This document shows, in pieces, positions 12,920 through 54,886 of a stretch of DNA of 64,000 nucleotides. The notes below the pieces were generated by a model. The model saw nothing but the letters and a program-made list of their open reading frames with translations, had not been told where the DNA came from and did not search any database. The position numbers and the translations under genes were made by a program. Source of the DNA: Escherichia coli (GTDB lineage: Bacteria > Pseudomonadota > Gammaproteobacteria > Enterobacterales > Enterobacteriaceae); NCBI RefSeq assembly GCF_003334305.1, contig NZ_QOWS01000005.1; one strand, 5' to 3'. The first letter of the stretch is position 1. Every line of letters starts with the position of its first letter.

Positions 12920-12944
12920 GACCGATGCCACGTTTTGCTAAATC
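12920..12944 (-). promoter_or_regulatory. marbox (MarA/SoxS/Rob binding site) upstream of the marRAB promoter
   Basis: Minus-strand reading GATTTAGCAAAACGTGGCATCGGTC matches the mar marbox sequence as I recall it. Confidence 0.7.
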
Positions 12945-31221: not shown

Positions 31222-32175
31222 ATGACAATCAACGATTCGGCAATTTCAGAACAGGGAATGTGTGAAGAAGAACAGGTCGCGCGGATCGCGTGGTTTTACT
31301 ATCACGACGGGCTGACCCAGAGCGAGATCAGCGATCGTCTCGGCCTGACCCGTTTGAAAGTGTCGCGCTTGCTGGAGAAAGGGCATCAGTCCGGCATTAT
31401 TCGCGTACAGATTAATTCTCGCTTTGAAGGCTGTCTGGAATATGAAACTCAATTACGTCGTCAGTTTTCGCTGCAACATGTCCGGGTGATCCCTGGGCTT
31501 GCGGATGCTGATGTCGGCGGGCGACTGGGGATAGGCGCGGCGCATATGTTGATGAGTTTACTTCAACCACAACAGATGCTGGCGATTGGTTTTGGCGAGG
31601 CAACCATGAATACGCTGCAACGCTTAAGTGGTTTTATTTCGTCACAGCAAATTCGCCTGGTCACGCTCTCCGGTGGCGTCGGTTCTTATATGACGGGTAT
31701 CGGGCAGCTTAACGCGGCGTGCAGTGTGAATATTATTCCGGCTCCGTTGCGGGCATCCTCCGCTGACATTGCCCGTACGCTAAAAAATGAAAATTGCGTC
31801 AAAGATGTTCTGTTAGCCGCGCAAGCAGCCGATGTGGCGATTGTCGGCATTGGGGCCGTCAGTCAACAGGACGACGCGACGATCATTCGCTCCGGTTATA
31901 TCAGCCAGGGCGAACAGTTAATGATTGGTCGAAAAGGGGCGGTTGGCGACATTTTAGGCTACTTTTTTGATGCAAAAGGTGACGTTGTCACGGATATTAA
32001 AATACATAACGAACTGATTGGCTTACCTTTAAGCTCGCTGAAGACCATACCCGTCCGGGTTGGCGTGGCAGGGGGAGAAAATAAAGCCGAAGCAATTGCC
32101 GCTGCAATGAAAGGCGGTTATATCAACGCACTGGTTACCGATCAGGACACAGCAGCGGCGATTTTACGTAGTTAA
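31222..32175 (+). CDS. lsrR: lsr operon repressor LsrR (317 aa, SorC/DeoR family)
   Basis: N-terminal HTH then sugar-phosphate-binding domain; divergent from lsrA. Confidence 0.9.
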
Positions 32176-32253: not shown

Positions 32254-33846
32254 ATGGCTCGACTCTTTACCCCTTCAGAATCAAAGTATTACCTGATGGC
32301 GCTGGATGCAGGTACCGGAAGTATTCGGGCTGTGATATTCGACCTGGAAGGCAATCAAATAGCAGTGGGACAGGCGGAGTGGCGGCACCTGGCAGTACCG
32401 GACGTTCCTGGTTCTATGGAATTTGATCTCAACAAAAACTGGCAACTGGCGTGTGAGTGTATGCGCCAGGCGCTGCACAACGCCGGCATAGCCCCGGAGT
32501 ATATCGCTGCCGTTTCGGCATGTTCGATGCGTGAAGGCATTGTTTTATATAATAATGAAGGAGCCCCGATCTGGGCCTGCGCCAATGTGGATGCCAGAGC
32601 GGCACGCGAAGTTAGCGAACTTAAAGAACTGCACAACAATACCTTTGAAAACGAAGTTTATCGCGCGACCGGACAAACACTGGCTTTAAGTGCCATCCCC
32701 AGATTACTTTGGCTGGCGCACCATCGTTCCGATATTTACCGTCAGGCATCAACCATCACCATGATCAGCGACTGGCTGGCCTATATGCTCAGCGGCGAAC
32801 TGGCGGTGGATCCCTCTAACGCTGGCACCACGGGACTTCTTGATCTAACCACCCGTGACTGGAAACCTGCATTGCTGGATATGGCTGGCCTGCGTGCCGA
32901 TATTCTTTCTCCTGTCAAAGAAACCGGCACATTGCTGGGCGTGGTAAGTTCACAAGCGGCGGAACTCTGCGGTCTGAAGGCGGGCACTCCGGTGGTCGTT
33001 GGAGGAGGCGACGTGCAGCTTGGTTGCCTTGGGTTAGGCGTTGTGCGTCCGGCACAAACCGCGGTTCTTGGCGGCACATTCTGGCAGCAAGTTGTAAATT
33101 TAGCCGCGCCGGTGACAGACCCAGAAATGAACGTGCGCGTTAATCCTCATGTTATTCCTGGCATGGTACAAGCTGAATCTATAAGCTTTTTTACCGGACT
33201 CACCATGCGCTGGTTCCGCGATGCTTTCTGTGCCGAAGAAAAACTGATTGCCGAACGTTTAGGCATCGACACCTATACGCTGCTGGAAGAGATGGCCAGT
33301 CGGGTGCCGCCTGGGTCGTGGGGCGTAATGCCGATCTTCTCCGACAGAATGCGCTTTAAAACCTGGTATCACGCTGCGCCTTCCTTTATTAACTTGTCCA
33401 TTGAGCCGGATAAATGTAACAAAGCGACATTGTTCCGTGCGCTGGAAGAAAATGCGGCGATTGTATCAGCGTGTAACTTGCAGCAAATTGCTGATTTCTC
33501 GAATATTCATCCTTCATCGTTAGTCTTTGCAGGCGGAGGTTCAAAAGGGAAATTATGGAGTCAAATTCTCGCTGATGTCTCGGGATTACCCGTCAATATT
33601 CCGGTGGTCAAAGAAGCCACTGCATTAGGATGTGCCATTGCAGCTGGCGTCGGTGCCGGAATTTTTTCATCAATGGCAGAAACCGGAGAACGCCTGGTTC
33701 GCTGGGAACGGACGCACACACCAGACCCGGAAAAGCATGAACTTTATCAGGATTCACGCGATAAGTGGCAGGCAGTTTATCAGGATCAGCTGGGGCTGGT
33801 TGATCATGGACTGACGACGTCGTTATGGAAAGCGCCTGGGTTATAG
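32254..33846 (+). CDS. lsrK: Autoinducer-2 kinase LsrK (530 aa, FGGY kinase family)
   Basis: FGGY carbohydrate kinase motifs ([15 protein letters not shown]). Confidence 0.9.
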
Positions 33847-33855
33847 TTTCATTGA

Positions 33856-33890
33856 CAGCCACATCATGATGACCGTGGCTGTTAGTTTTT
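33856..33890 (+). terminator. Intrinsic terminator after lsrK
   Basis: Stem cagccac / gtggctg followed by ttagttttt. Confidence 0.5.
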
Positions 33891-34376
33891 GAGTATAGTT
33901 ATTCTTATTTCCCTTCTTTTAGAGCTGGCTTGTTAAAAGCCAGCTTGCAGATTCATCGTTCCATCACCAGTACTATATTCAAGGGAAAATTGCTATTTTT
34001 CTTAAAGCATTAAGCACAACCCTTATTTTATAGCGAATATTCCTAAAGACACTAATGGATGCAAAAGGGGTTTAATAAACTTCGATTTTTAGCAATTAGT
34101 GCTATTCTTTGTTAAATATGATGATGATAATTTTCCTATTGAAAGAAACAGTTTTCTTATTAATCAACAATAACTCATAGTTCATTTTTAAATAAAATAA
34201 GAACTATGCATTTTTTAATCTATCAATTCGAAAGTATTAGCAAATTAGCCAAATTGACACCTTCCCACCTCCAACTAACACTCAATACAGACCTCTGACA
34301 ATTTAATAAGTTTCATTTTTAATGTCTGACGACTCATCTCTTTCGTGGCTGTATTGTTTGTATATGGAGCGTTTAT

Positions 34377-37300
34377 ATGAATAGAATCTATCGCGTGATA
34401 TGGAATTGCACTCTACAGGTATTTCAGGCCTGCTCGGAATTAACTCGCAGGGCAGGTAAAACATCGACGGTTAATTTGCGTAAATCCTCTGGACTGACAA
34501 CGAAATTCAGTAGATTGACGCTGGGTGTTTTGCTGGCACTAAGCGGTTCAGCGTCTGGTGCAAGTCTGGAAGTTGATAATGATCAGATTACCAATATTGA
34601 TACTGATGTTGCTTATGATGCCTACCTGGTTGGCTGGTATGGCACTGGAGTGCTTAATATTTTGGCTGGCGGTAATGCCTCCTTAACCACTATTACTACC
34701 AGCGTCATTGGCGCTAATGAGGACTCAGAGGGCACCGTTAATGTTTTGGGTGGCACCTGGCGATTGTATGATAGCGGAAATAATGCAAGGCCTTTAAATG
34801 TGGGTCAATCCGGAACGGGGACGCTGAATATTAAACAGAAAGGTCACGTTGATGGAGGCTATTTAAGACTAGGTTCCTCGACAGGAGGCGTCGGGACGGT
34901 CAATGTTGAGGGAGAGGACTCTGTTCTGACGACCGAATTATTCGAAATAGGGAGTTACGGTACGGGATCATTAAATATTACGGATAAGGGTTACGTCACG
35001 AGTTCAATAGTCGCCATTTTAGGCTATCAGGCGGGCAGTAATGGCCAGGTTGTCGTTGAAAAGGGCGGTGAGTGGCTAATAAAAAATAACGATTCCTCAA
35101 TTGAATTTCAAATTGGTAATCAAGGAACTGGGGAAGCGACTATTCGCGAGGGTGGACTGATTACGGCTGAAAACACGATTATCGGTGGCAATGCTACCGG
35201 TATCGGAACCCTGAATGTGCAGGATCAAGACTCTGTCATCACGGTACGCAGACTCTATAATGGATATTTCGGTAATGGCACACTCAATATTTCCAATAAT
35301 GGACTAATTAATAACAAAGAATATTCATTAGTGGGCGTTCAGGACGGTTCCCACGGTGTCGTCAACGTGACCGATAAAGGGCATTGGAATTTCCTCGGAA
35401 CGGGCGAAGCTTTCCGCTATATCTATATCGGTGATGCTGGCGACGGTGAACTTAATGTCTCGCGTGAAGGTAAAGTAGATTCGGGAATTATCACTGCGGG
35501 GATGAAAGAAACAGGCACAGGCAACATTACTGTTAAGGATAAGAACTCCGTTATCACTAATCTCGGAACTAATCTTGGTTATGACGGCCACGGCGAAATG
35601 AATATCAGTAATGAAGGGCTTGTTGTCAGCAACGGAGGAAGCTCACTCGGTTATGGAGAAACCGGCGTCGGGAATGTCAGCATCACCACGGGGGGGATGT
35701 GGGAGGTCAATAAGAATGTCTATACCACCATTGGTGTTGCGGGCGTCGGAAACCTCAATATTAGCGATGGCGGTAAGTTCGTATCGCAAAATATTACTTT
35801 TTTGGGCGATAAAGCAAGCGGTATCGGCACACTGAACCTGATGGATGCGACATCATCGTTCGATACTGTGGGTATCAATGTCGGTAATTTTGGTAGCGGT
35901 ATCGTAAATGTCAGTAATGGTGCCACCCTTAATTCAACGGGCTATGGATTTATCGGAGGAAATGCCTCCGGTAAGGGGATAGTTAATATTTCAACGGACA
36001 GTCTCTGGAATTTAAAGACATCATCTACTAACGCACAATTGCTACAGGTCGGTGTATTAGGCAAGGGTGAACTGAATATTACCACCGGAGGTATAGTTAA
36101 AGCGCGTGATACACAGATAGCTCTCAATGACAAAAGTAAGGGCGACGTGAGGGTGGATGGGCAGAACTCTCTTCTTGAAACATTCAATATGTACGTAGGG
36201 ACATCTGGTACGGGTACGTTAACCCTGACGAATAGCGGCACGCTGAATGTCGAAGGTGGAGAAGTTTACTTAGGTGTTTTTGAACCTGCTGTAGGAACGC
36301 TAAACATTGGTGCAGCTCACGGTGAGGCGGCGGCAGATGCCGGGTATATAACCAACGCGACGAAAGTAGAGTTTGGTTCTGGCGAAGGTGTTTTTGTCTT
36401 TAATCATACTAATAACAGTGATGCCGGCTACCAGGTCGATATGCTGATTACAGGTGACGATAAAGACGGAAAAGTGATCCATGATGCAGGCCATACGGTG
36501 TTCAATGCAGGGAATACTTATAGCGGTAAAACGCTGGTCAATGACGGCCTCCTGACCATTGCGTCTCATACGGCAGATGGGGTAACGGGCATGGGTTCGA
36601 GTGAAGTCACCATTGCAAGCCCCGGTACGCTCGACATTCTCGCATCAACGAACAGTGCAGGAGATTACACGCTGACCAATGCGCTCAAAGGCGATGGCTT
36701 GATGCGAGTGCAGCTGTCATCCTACGACAAGATGTTTGGCTTTACCCATGCAACAGGGACTGAATTCGCCGGTGTTGCCCAACTGAAAGACAGTACCTTC
36801 ACTCTGGAACGCGACAACACCGCTGCGCTTACTCACGCGATGTTGCAGTCTGACAGTGAAAATACCACATCGGTAAAAGTGGGAGAGCAATCCATTGGTG
36901 GACTGGCCATGAATGGCGGTACGCTCATTTTCGATACGGATATTCCTGCTGCGACGCTTGCAGAGGGATATATCAGCGTCGATACGCTGGTTGTCGGCGC
37001 GGGTGACTACACCTGGAAAGGCCGTAACTATCAGGTAAACGGGACGGGCGACGTGCTTATCGACGTGCCTAAACCGTGGAATGATCCCATGGCGAATAAC
37101 CCTCTGACGACGCTCAATTTGCTGGAACACGACGATAGCCATGTCGGCGTTCAACTGGTGAAGGCGCAAACGGTTATTGGGTCGGGTGGCTCATTAACGT
37201 TACGTGATTTACAGGGCGACGAGGTGGAAGCGGACAAAACGTTACACATTGCGCAAAACGGAACGGTGGTCGCCGAGGGTGATTATGGATTCCGCCTCAC

Positions 37301-51534: not shown

Positions 51535-51572
51535 TTCTTCTGCTGTCATCCGCACAGCAGAAGAATTTCTCA
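51535..51572 (+). terminator. Strong intrinsic terminator after ydeP (12-bp perfect stem + T-run)
   Basis: ttcttctgctgt-catccgc-acagcagaagaa followed by tttct. Confidence 0.7.
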
Positions 51573-51639
51573 TTGACTATTATCGCGCAATTTGCTCACA
51601 TTGATTAAATTAAACCACACACTATAAGATATAAACCTC

Positions 51640-51657
51640 TGCCTACAGCTGTAAGAA
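51640..51657 (+). promoter_or_regulatory. EvgA box (TGCCTACA-GC-TGTAAGAA) upstream of safA-ydeO
   Basis: Matches the EvgA consensus at 15/16 positions; 112 bp upstream of safA. Confidence 0.7.
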
Positions 51658-51768
51658 ACTCCGCTCAGTACTGAAGTGCCAGTCCTATTTCCTCTTTTCT
51701 CCAGCCTGTTATATTAAGCATACTGATTAACGATTTTTAACGTTATCCGCTAAATAAACATATTTGAA

Positions 51769-51966
51769 ATGCATGCGACCACAGTGAAAAACAAAATCAC
51801 GCAAAGAGACAACTATAAAGAAATCATGTCTGTAATTGTGGTTGTCTTATTACTGACCCTTACGTTGATAGCCATTTTTTCGGCAATTGATCAGCTGGGT
51901 ATTTCAGAAATGGGTCGCATTGCAAGAGATCTTACACATTTCATTATCAATAGTTTGCAAGACTGA
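51769..51966 (+). CDS. safA: Two-component connector SafA (65 aa membrane protein)
   Basis: 65-aa single-TM protein immediately upstream of ydeO. Confidence 0.8.
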   Translation: MHATTVKNKITQRDNYKEIMSVIVVVLLLTLTLIAIFSAIDQLGISEMGRIARDLTHFIINSLQD

Positions 51967-52040
51967 AAATAAACAGCAAATTATAAATATGAAATGTTAA
52001 AAAAGTATCGATAAAAACTTTATTGTTTTAAGGAGATAAA

Positions 52041-52802
52041 ATGTCGCTCGTTTGTTCTGTTATATTTATTCATCATGCCTTCAACGCTAACATTTTAGAT
52101 AAAGATTACGCCTTCTCTGACGGCGAGATCCTGATGGTAGATAACGCTGTTCGTACGCATTTTGAACCTTATGAGCGGCATTTTAAAGAGATCGGATTTA
52201 CTGAAAATACCATTAAAAAATATCTACAATGCACTAACATCCAGACAGTGACGGTGCCTGTTCCTGCGAAGTTTTTACGTGCTTCAAATGTACCGACTGG
52301 ATTGCTTAATGAAATGATTGCTTATCTCAACTCGGAAGAACGCAATCATCATAATTTTTCAGAACTTTTGCTTTTTTCTTGCCTGTCTATTTTTGCCGCA
52401 TGCAAAGGTTTCATTACACTATTAACTAACGGTGTGCTATCCGTTTCCGGAAAAGTGAGAAATATTGTCAACATGAAGCTGGCGCACCCATGGAAGCTGA
52501 AAGATATTTGTGACTGCCTGTACATCAGTGAAAGCCTGTTGAAGAAAAAACTAAAGCAAGAGCAAACGACATTCTCACAGATTCTATTAGATGCCAGAAT
52601 GCAGCACGCAAAAAATTTGATACGCGTAGAAGGTTCAGTCAATAAAATTGCCGAACAATGTGGTTATGCCAGTACATCTTATTTTATTTATGCGTTCCGC
52701 AAACATTTCGGCAACAGTCCGAAGAGAGTTTCTAAGGAGTACCGTTGTCAAAGTCACACGGGTATGAATACGGGCAACACGATGAGTGCTTTAGCTATTT
52801 GA
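52041..52802 (+). CDS. ydeO: AraC-family acid-resistance regulator YdeO (253 aa)
   Basis: C-terminal AraC HTH (GYASTSYFIYAFRKHFGNSPKR). Confidence 0.9.
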   Translation: MSLVCSVIFIHHAFNANILDKDYAFSDGEILMVDNAVRTHFEPYERHFKEIGFTENTIKKYLQCTNIQTVTVPVPAKFLRASNVPTGLLNEMIAYLNSEERNHHNFSELLLFSCLSIFAACKGFITLLTNGVLSVSGKVRNIVNMKLAHPWKLKDICDCLYISESLLKKKLKQEQTTFSQILLDARMQHAKNLIRVEGSVNKIAEQCGYASTSYFIYAFRKHFGNSPKRVSKEYRCQSHTGMNTGNTMSALAI

Positions 52803-52850
52803 TTATTTGCTAACGAGTAGTCAACCACGCACGCTACGTAAGAATTATAT

Positions 52851-52883
52851 GGGGCAGCCATTCCCTGCCCCGCGTTGTTTTTA
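52851..52883 (+). terminator. Intrinsic terminator after ydeO
   Basis: ggggcag-ccattcc-ctgcccc followed by gcgttgttttta. Confidence 0.6.
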
Positions 52884-53203
52884 GGCGATATATTTATTGA
52901 AATAAATAAGTGACATCCATCACATATTTATGCACTTGCATAACCTGTTGCATGATTATTTATGATCTCAATTCGGCATTTTGTCAGTAAAATGCAATAA
53001 TTTATTAAATATCAATAAATTAGTTGTTTATCGGCGAGAAATTACTTAATAGAACAGAAAGTAATGTCAACGCTTTATGGACTGTTATTTCCCTTTTTTT
53101 AGCTAAATCTGCTATCTCTTTATGTGACTAACTTCACTTACATCCACTTATTTCTCTTCGTAAAATTACTTCGGAATTAAGTACAATAAGAAGAGGAACA
53201 TTT

Positions 53204-54886
53204 ATGAAGTCTGCATTAAAGAAAAGTGTCGTAAGTACCTCGATATCTTTGATACTGGCATCTGGTATGGCTGCATTTGCTGCTCATGCGGCAGATGATG
53301 TAAAGCTGAAAGCAACCAAAACAAACGTTGCTTTCTCAGACTTTACGCCGACTGAATACAGTACCAAAGGAAAGCCAAATATTATCGTACTAACCATGGA
53401 TGATCTTGGTTATGGACAACTTCCTTTTGATAAGGGATCTTTTGACCCAAAAACAATGGAAAATCGTGAAGTTGTCGATACCTACAAAATAGGGATAGAT
53501 AAAGCCATTGAAGCTGCACAAAAATCAACGCCGACGCTCCTTTCATTAATGGATGAAGGCGTACGGTTTACTAACGGCTATGTGGCACACGGTGTTTCCG
53601 GCCCCTCCCGTGCCGCAATAATGACCGGTCGAGCTCCCGCCCGCTTTGGTGTCTATTCCAATACAGATGCTCAGGATGGTATTCCGCTAACAGAAACTTT
53701 CTTGCCTGAATTATTCCAGAATCATGGTTATTACACTGCAGCAGTAGGTAAATGGCACTTGTCAAAAATCAGTAATGTGCCGGTACCGGAAGATAAACAA
53801 ACGCGTGACTATCATGACAACTTCACCACATTTTCTGCGGAAGAATGGCAACCTCAAAACCGTGGCTTTGATTACTTTATGGGATTCCACGCTGCAGGAA
53901 CGGCATATTACAACTCCCCTTCACTGTTCAAAAATCGTGAACGTGTCCCCGCAAAAGGTTATATCAGCGATCAGTTAACCGATGAGGCAATTGGCGTTGT
54001 TGATCGTGCCAAAACACTTGACCAGCCTTTTATGCTTTACCTGGCTTATAATGCTCCGCACCTGCCAAATGATAATCCTGCACCGGATCAATATCAGAAG
54101 CAATTTAATACCGGTAGTCAAACAGCAGATAACTACTACGCTTCCGTTTATTCTGTTGATCAGGGTGTAAAACGCATTCTCGAACAACTGAAGAAAAACG
54201 GACAGTATGACAATACAATTATTCTCTTTACCTCCGATAATGGTGCGGTTATCGATGGTCCTCTGCCGCTGAACGGGGCGCAAAAAGGCTATAAGAGTCA
54301 GACCTATCCTGGCGGTACTCACACCCCAATGTTTATGTGGTGGAAAGGAAAACTTCAACCCGGTAATTATGACAAGCTGATTTCCGCAATGGATTTCTAC
54401 CCGACAGCTCTTGATGCAGCCGATATCAGCATTCCAAAAGACCTTAAGCTGGATGGCGTTTCCTTGCTGCCCTGGTTGCAAGATAAGAAACAAGGCGAGC
54501 CACATAAAAATCTGACCTGGATAACCTCTTATTCTCACTGGTTTGACGAGGAAAATATTCCATTCTGGGATAATTACCACAAATTTGTTCGCCATCAGTC
54601 AGACGATTACCCGCATAACCCCAACACTGAGGACTTAAGCCAATTCTCTTATACGGTGAGAAATAACGATTATTCGCTTGTCTATACAGTAGAAAACAAT
54701 CAGTTAGGTCTCTACAAACTGACGGATCTACAGCAAAAAGATAACCTTGCCGCCGCCAATCCGCAGGTCGTTAAAGAGATGCAAGGCGTGGTAAGAGAGT
54801 TTATCGACAGCAGCCAGCCACCGCTTAGCGAGGTAAATCAGGAGAAGTTTAACAATATCAAGAAAGCACTAAGCGAAGCGAAATAA
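53204..54886 (+). CDS. ydeN: Periplasmic sulfatase YdeN (560 aa)
   Basis: Signal peptide; sulfatase active-site region with Ser in place of Cys (HGVSGPSRAAIMTGR), implying the Ser-type, maturase-dependent class. Confidence 0.9.
   Translation: MKSALKKSVVSTSISLILASGMAAFAAHAADDVKLKATKTNVAFSDFTPTEYSTKGKPNIIVLTMDDLGYGQLPFDKGSFDPKTMENREVVDTYKIGIDKAIEAAQKSTPTLLSLMDEGVRFTNGYVAHGVSGPSRAAIMTGRAPARFGVYSNTDAQDGIPLTETFLPELFQNHGYYTAAVGKWHLSKISNVPVPEDKQTRDYHDNFTTFSAEEWQPQNRGFDYFMGFHAAGTAYYNSPSLFKNRERVPAKGYISDQLTDEAIGVVDRAKTLDQPFMLYLAYNAPHLPNDNPAPDQYQKQFNTGSQTADNYYASVYSVDQGVKRILEQLKKNGQYDNTIILFTSDNGAVIDGPLPLNGAQKGYKSQTYPGGTHTPMFMWWKGKLQPGNYDKLISAMDFYPTALDAADISIPKDLKLDGVSLLPWLQDKKQGEPHKNLTWITSYSHWFDEENIPFWDNYHKFVRHQSDDYPHNPNTEDLSQFSYTVRNNDYSLVYTVENNQLGLYKLTDLQQKDNLAAANPQVVKEMQGVVREFIDSSQPPLSEVNQEKFNNIKKALSEAK

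Follow-up and report, generated by a model that had tools for sequence, protein, structure and literature searches.

The AT-rich spacer between lsrK and an autotransporter gene in Escherichia coli: a previously described region, probably an H-NS-silenced adhesin promoter

The stretch of Escherichia coli chromosome analysed here, 64,000 nt long and called the window, carries lsrR (31222-32175) and lsrK (32254-33846, the stop being at 33846), both on the + strand. They are followed on the same strand by an intact gene (34377-39797) for an autotransporter of the ECSE_1600 family, 1806 aa long, which corresponds to yneO/ydeK/ydeU in K-12 (PMC2608844). hipBA lies 3′ of the autotransporter gene. Our subject is the 530-bp spacer that extends from the lsrK stop (33846) to the autotransporter ATG (34377). 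A Shine-Dalgarno sequence, GGAG, and the ATG can be read from the sequence at 34366-34379 (+ strand), and the nucleotides just ahead of the ATG (34365-34376) show no variation among the 51 variants described below. At its N-terminus the protein has an extended signal peptide.

The spacer is real, ordinary and previously described. The AT-rich gap is the already known lsrK–yneO (ydeK) spacer of E. coli, and it appears in three earlier catalogues: the list of promoter islands, RNA polymerase SELEX and MarA ChIP-seq. Of 5426 complete E. coli genomes, 4225 contain it, and its alignment with the spacers of K-12 MG1655, ETEC H10407 and O157 is free of gaps. Compared with the K-12 spacer, which is equally long, there are 5 differences in 530 positions; the identity with H10407 is 99.2%. 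The spacer carries no annotation in any of the genomes among the matches listed, and in the MG1655 RefSeq record no feature, including no RNA, is annotated in it. The autotransporter gene is intact here, as in SE11, and frameshifted in K-12, O157:H7, ETEC H10407 and several other strains; the K-12 orthologue is the pseudogene yneO, formerly ydeK/ydeU. Decay of the gene is thus recurrent, while the regulatory region 5′ of it stays conserved. It should be noted that the published data on H-NS, hns-stpA and SELEX used below were obtained in K-12, which carries the gene as a pseudogene, and those on MarA in H10407, in which it is frameshifted, the spacers being 99% identical.

A first-pass annotation made from the sequence had described 33891-34376 as an AT-rich, ORF-free leader of about 490 bp, and had proposed a calculation of AT content to check it. 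The description is borne out by that calculation. The 486 bp have 30.9% GC compared with 46.5% in the whole window; among the windows of this length in the 64 kb, they belong to the 0.06% with the lowest GC, and 200-bp windows in the spacer go down to 25.5% GC. A/T tracts of at least 4 number 14 in the spacer (mean 6.3) and TpA steps number 50 (vs. 31), and by either count the spacer ranks among the top 2% of 530-bp tiles. The spacer thereby combines AT-richness, A-tracts and TpA steps, the base composition of an H-NS-silenced xenogeneic promoter. The longest ORF entirely within it has 30 aa; a 53-aa ORF on the minus strand runs across the autotransporter ATG and is intact in only 40 of the 51 variants. 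Other stretches of the window at or below 34% GC (42061-42597, 51561-52247, 52751-53387 and 63121-63857) may also be H-NS-type regions.

Natural variation was followed in 51 distinct collinear sequences, obtained from reference strains together with 74 metagenome contigs that matched a degenerate pattern on the first codons of the autotransporter gene. Diversity (pi) of the spacer is 0.037, compared with 0.030 at third codon positions of lsrK and 0.064 at those of the autotransporter gene. Since this is like the flanking third positions, the spacer drifts on average. Along its length, pi is 0.004 in the lsrK terminator, 0.063 in the distal island (33946-34085), 0.10-0.11 in 34047-34086, 0.011-0.016 in the marbox with the next 20 bp, and 0.015-0.028 in the last 175 bp. 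Taken as a whole, the spacer is close to neutral in its diversity, with conserved stretches at the terminator, the marbox block and the core promoter. Four runs of 20-25 bp are invariant: 33987-34006 (20 bp), 34100-34121 (22 bp, abutting the marbox on its promoter-proximal side), 34187-34210 (24 bp) and 34277-34301 (25 bp, covering the -35 discussed below). By our own estimate, about 0.4 such runs would be expected at the variable fraction of third positions.

These numbers bear on the view that most of the spacer, the lsrK terminator and its final ~130 bp excepted, is neutral filler that arrived with the acquired gene, and that H-NS and MarA bind it passively and with no selected function. 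The average diversity and the still higher diversity of the distal part would suit this view. Insertion of an IS1 and of an IS5-ended MITE without apparent cost in some strains, and the frequent loss of the downstream gene to pseudogenes, would suit it as well. We nevertheless consider it unlikely, given the excess of invariant runs over expectation and the marbox block, whose diversity is 5-7 times below that of its neighbours and whose common variant is a proven MarA site. We prefer to read the spacer as a regulatory region, and the following paragraphs take up its parts.

Immediately after lsrK comes an intrinsic terminator (33851-33890, + strand), in which a 12-bp stem (33851-33862 with 33875-33886) encloses a 12-nt loop and is followed by a T run. 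That the leader begins after a terminator of lsrK was claimed earlier, and the terminator is real: the RNA fold of 33840-33960 has a free energy of -37.6 kcal/mol (z = -5.2), and 49 of the 51 variants are identical in the element. The automatic terminator scan missed it because of the 12-nt loop. A second hairpin, with arms AGCTGGCTT and AAGCCAGCT, occupies 33923-33945 and has a perfect 9-bp stem (33923-33931 with 33937-33945). The first-pass annotation had placed a second small hairpin at 33923-33943; the hairpin exists, but its true end lies 2 nt further. It has no T run on either strand, and its inverted repeat occurs once in the window. Most variants retain only a GC core of 5-7 bp, and among the 51 variants every change in the stem is one-sided, with zero compensatory changes.

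It had also been suggested that the region could hide a small RNA or a long structured 5′ UTR, and a covariance search across related genomes had been proposed. A contig scan with the autotransporter N-terminus gave only two E. coli-like contigs and no cross-species comparators; the covariation test therefore rests on the within-species diversity from the metagenome scan. RNAalifold on the 51 variants in 120-nt windows gave zero compensatory pairs, except for 1-2 in three windows that hold 5-6 broken pairs. In 100-nt folding windows on both strands, only 33851-33950, which contains the two hairpins, is strongly structured (z = -6.4). Folding elsewhere is at best marginal (z = -2.9), between 34126 and 34375. 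From 34201 up to the ATG, sense-strand z-scores do not fall below zero, which means less structure than in shuffled sequences. In an 8-bp inverted repeat (34176-34183 with 34201-34208), variation is confined to the left arm, and this unequal conservation indicates that it is not a conserved palindrome. An Rfam search of the spacer at a permissive E ≤ 10 returned only eukaryotic snoRNA and lncRNA noise, far below gathering scores, and the automatic scan found no terminator-like element 3′ of 33950.

In sum, a small RNA gene or a structured cis-regulatory RNA was considered and rejected: neither a covariance-model match, nor compensatory structure, nor a start and terminator of its own was found in the spacer. 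The unusual length of the spacer (530 bp), its conserved blocks of 20-25 bp and the marginal folding signal of 34126-34375 (either strand) are what such an RNA could be credited with. Set against the folding, Rfam and covariation results, a K-12 start-site list with no entry in the spacer (Kim et al. 2012), the MG1655 RefSeq record with no RNA, and an overall diversity equal to that of synonymous sites, they leave a small RNA or structured leader extremely improbable, and the idea is largely refuted.

The AT-rich core of the spacer is better described by work on promoter islands and H-NS. In K-12, the interval 1596197-1596541, listed as ydeK(-)/lsrK(-), is one of 78 'promoter islands' (Panyukov & Ozoline 2013, PMC3661553). 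It is scored as H-NS-bound in every compiled ChIP-chip study (Grainger, Kahramanoglou and Oshima), and the adjoining gene is scored as foreign by one predictor (PMC3661553). As a class, promoter islands bind RNA polymerase and make almost no long RNA (PMC3661553). When the MG1655 (U00096.2) coordinates are carried over through the gap-free K-12 alignment (NC_000913.3, with an offset of +1976 that the lsrR coordinates confirm), the island falls on 33946-34290, where GC is 25-34%. Listing as an island calls for at least 300 bp of extreme PlatProm start-point density, and the present spacer inherits the listing by orthology with the K-12 island. It is the same locus as island 1596197_345 of Shavkunov, Panyukov and Ozoline, with which it shares AT-richness, H-NS binding, a foreign-scored neighbour and the lack of a recorded start; the difference is that the downstream autotransporter is a pseudogene in K-12 and an intact gene of 1806 aa here. 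By a simple consensus count, which is not PlatProm, the spacer has 9 promoter-like hexamer pairs compared with 4.3 ± 2.9 per tile, in the top 9% only, so that the enrichment of promoter-like sites is moderate for an island. Two other genes, ycgV and yfaL, we take to encode autotransporters. Islands beside both are in the same promoter-island table (PMC3661553). The locus is absent from the further promoter-island papers that were searched.

That the region is silenced, and not only bound, is indicated by expression data. In the comparison of wild type with hns-stpA, b1510 (ydeK) has a logFC of -3.33 (P = 9e-30), i.e., it is derepressed about 10-fold (Srinivasan et al. 2015, PMC4288151 supplement), whereas lsrK has a logFC of +1.5 (PMC4288151). 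As lsrK moves the opposite way, the derepression of ydeK is not read-through from lsrK, and silencing hits the autotransporter's own transcription. The yneO<lsrK spacer is also marked HNS in the RpoD SELEX table (Shimada et al. 2014, PMC3946193). The first-pass annotation had compared the leader with typical H-NS-silenced promoters of adhesin genes, and had named H-NS ChIP data as a means of checking it. The published K-12 data agree with the comparison: to the HNS flag and the change in b1510 can be added the ChIP-chip island, scored as bound in all the studies compiled (PMC3661553).

The likeness to other AT-rich adhesin promoters under xenogeneic silencing by H-NS/StpA covers low GC, A-tracts, TpA steps and the ~10-fold derepression of ydeK in hns-stpA. 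Two features set the spacer apart. It has no strong match to the high-affinity H-NS motif of Lang (TCGATAAATT), which is not enriched in the spacer and is represented there by only two overlapping matches with 2 mismatches, and its counter-silencer, MarA, is only a candidate. The spacer is otherwise a textbook case of xenogeneic silencing, and as a discovery it carries little weight.

Adhesin genes can also be controlled by phase variation, as are agn43 (Ag43, through Dam/OxyR) and the genes under the fimS switch. A phase-variable promoter, Dam/OxyR-dependent or invertible, was considered and rejected. The spacer contains zero GATC sites and only short, imperfect inverted repeats, no long flanking ones being found, and no recombinase gene is among the annotated neighbours (lsrK, hipBA). 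With neither GATC sites nor long inverted repeats, the spacer gives no indication of Ag43- or fim-type phase variation. The likeness to agn43 and fimS is limited to being a control region 5′ of an E. coli surface adhesin gene; their GATC cluster, invertible repeats and recombinase features were not found in the spacer.

Which promoter is silenced can be narrowed down further. A strict consensus scan finds no sigma-70 pair in the spacer, in keeping with the earlier statement that no -35/-10 pair could be called confidently. RpoD genomic SELEX, on the other hand, places a 'constitutive promoter', CTGACA-17-TTTAAT, in the yneO<lsrK spacer (Shimada et al. 2014, PMC3946193). As a predicted sigma-70 promoter of the autotransporter gene, this pair lies at 34295-34323 (+ strand); it occurs once in the window and implies a TSS near 34330 and a leader of ~46 nt. 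The -35 is invariant. In the -10, position 2 is not an A, and the terminal T is replaced by a C in 5 of the 51 variants. Because of this loss, the assignment, which was made from sequence inside a low-resolution peak, is plausible rather than secure. An RpoS SELEX peak also lies within the yneO/lsrK spacer (PMC5493296). In K-12, the adjacent TSSs are at 1592595 and 1599272, none being in the spacer (Kim et al. 2012). Start-site mapping had been proposed to see if there is a simple promoter immediately upstream of the ATG; the wild-type K-12 list does not show one. The working promoter is most likely the weak CTGACA-17-TTTAAT pair, ~80 bp 5′ of the ATG, with a short, unstructured leader. Just 5′ of this core promoter, 34255-34300 is C-rich and G-poor on the + strand; if transcribed from upstream, it would resemble a Rho-loading site.

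We thus consider it quite probable that the spacer is the regulatory region of a horizontally acquired autotransporter adhesin gene, in which a promoter island covered by H-NS/StpA silences a weak proximal sigma-70 promoter, a strong terminator having stopped lsrK transcription beforehand. The sequence of events could be as follows. Within the first 100 bp, the strong and conserved intrinsic terminator would end lsrK transcription, the second hairpin coming after it. In the next ~350 bp, which are very AT-rich and have A-tracts, TpA steps and scattered promoter-like hexamers, H-NS (with StpA) would nucleate and spread. RNA polymerase could bind the island and would yield almost no full-length transcript, leaving the gene silent in ordinary culture.

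One element of the spacer may work against silencing. The marbox consensus has the form GCAYnnWnnRYYAAA. In the marRAB geometry, a class I marbox lies backward at about -62, and a class II marbox lies forward and overlaps the -35. The degenerate consensus has its sole match in the 64 kb at 34088-34102, on the minus strand. This marbox (MarA/SoxS/Rob-type), GCACTAATTGCTAAA, is backward relative to the autotransporter gene, 275-289 bp 5′ of the ATG. It is an exact 15-mer match to the site gcactaattgctaaa, reported for a MarA ChIP-seq peak 5′ of ETEC1580/yneO in ETEC H10407 (Sharma et al. 2017, PMC5684230), and its offset is identical in the H10407 spacer. A fragment with the ETEC1580/yneO site bound purified MarA at the lowest concentration tested, 0.3 µM (PMC5684230). 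The element is therefore both a consensus match and a MarA-bound sequence. The first-pass annotation, which listed the hairpin and the AT-rich leader, had missed this published site (PMC5684230). Diversity in the marbox (pi 0.016) contrasts with the 0.10-0.11 just 5′ of it, and its commonest variant, GCATTAATTGCTAAA, is the grxA/ybjC MarA site, which is also strongly bound by MarA (PMC5684230). The low diversity, together with a common variant that is another proven MarA site, suggests that the marbox is under selection. The mar locus itself is ~21 kb from this marbox, the marRAB operator marbox, CCACGTTTTGCTAAA, being at 12928-12942 (+ strand).

Through the conserved, high-affinity MarA box ~280 bp 5′ of the ATG, an activator or counter-silencer induced by stress would be likely to gain access to the region. 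The output of MarA at the spacer could be counter-silencing, activation of a distal promoter, or nothing; the literature searched contains no report of an effect of MarA, SoxS or Rob on yneO transcription. Promoters of the mar/sox/rob group (class I, as in marRAB) have in common with the spacer a consensus marbox, its backward orientation and MarA binding at 0.3 µM. They differ in the spacing of -35 and -10 from the marbox, usually -62 or -42, the only promoter assigned here being ~235 bp away. With its centre ~235 bp 5′ of the implied TSS, the marbox lies at too great a distance to activate that promoter in the classical class I or II manner.

MarA (or SoxS/Rob) might instead drive a distal promoter by the marbox. 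The mRNA would then have an AT-rich, unstructured leader of ~170-250 nt, in which the C-rich 34255-34300 could load Rho as a second layer of silencing. Binding of the marbox in vivo and in vitro (PMC5684230), its conservation with the adjacent invariant 22 bp, and an orientation that reads like the class I marbox of marRAB are consistent with such a promoter. A GC skew of -0.36 across 34100-34299 and a -10-like TAAAAT in the invariant 34187-34210 can be added to these. However, when candidate hexamers were read against the marRAB geometry, no -35/-10 pair was found on either strand at class I (~-62) or class II (-42) spacing from the marbox. This, the K-12 list with no TSS in the spacer (Kim et al. 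2012) and the silence of the searched literature on MarA and yneO transcription leave a distal promoter only a small chance.

Silencing of the proximal promoter, which we favour, could also be lifted by MarA without classical activation. In such a scheme the MarA box and the invariant blocks 3′ of it would form a stress-inducible counter-silencing module: induction of mar by salicylate or antibiotics would open the island and switch on the adhesin, possibly through a distal promoter and a long leader with a leaderless 30-aa uORF. We regard this scheme as speculative and rather doubtful. If MarA does turn on an intact adhesin, non-B2 E. coli, commensal as well as pathogenic, would have a link between antibiotic or salicylate stress and surface adhesion.

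The uORF in question, MHFLIYQFESISKLAKLTPSHLQLTLNTDL, is at 34206-34298 on the + strand; it is a weak lead and unlikely to be a gene. The frame stays intact in 49 of the 51 variants, and its SNVs divide into 8 synonymous and 7 non-synonymous, a synonymous fraction above that of every other frame in the spacer (background 0.27; nominal p = 0.028). With ~34 independent frame-windows, however, this p value is about what the best would reach by chance and is not significant. No Shine-Dalgarno sequence precedes the ORF, and a collection of 15 billion proteins has no match to it. The small ORFs of the spacer were accordingly rejected as genes, none being convincing and the best (34206-34298) failing correction for multiple testing. 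The invariant 24 bp (34187-34210) include TAAAAT, 8 nt 5′ of the ATG of the ORF, an arrangement that could give a leaderless start. That the ORF is a translated small protein or uORF, possibly leaderless from a TAAAAT -10 at 34193-34198, would accord with its intactness, its top rank among the frames and the invariant block that spans both the -10-like hexamer and the ATG. We hold it to be very unlikely, in view of the multiple tests, the missing Shine-Dalgarno sequence, its absence from the protein collection and the MG1655 annotation, and the lack of a recorded TSS.

Finally, the spacer has been altered by insertions and deletions in several strains. In strain 24AR0357, a 113-bp element after 34236-34240 looks like an IS5-derived MITE: its terminal inverted repeats (GGAAGGTGCGAATAAGT...ACTTATTCGCACCTTCC) are of IS5 type, and the target duplication is TTAG. 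Strain G3/10 has an IS1 in the spacer, with a 9-bp duplication of 34055-34063. Strain L37 also has an IS1 there, and has lost most of the spacer and the 5′ end of the autotransporter gene. The AT-rich spacer looks like a hot spot for insertions. In one metagenome contig, a deletion joins a sequence that by eye is putatively internal to lsrA to 33946, so that lsrR, lsrK and the terminator are gone; the breakpoint (33945/33946) coincides exactly with the end of the second hairpin. The two E. coli-like contigs of the scan with the autotransporter N-terminus carry fragments of the autotransporter gene with 90-98% identity; one belongs to a MAG assigned to Candidatus Nanosynbacter and the other to an assembly of Marinomonas sp. 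SBI8L, and both are almost certainly E. coli contamination.
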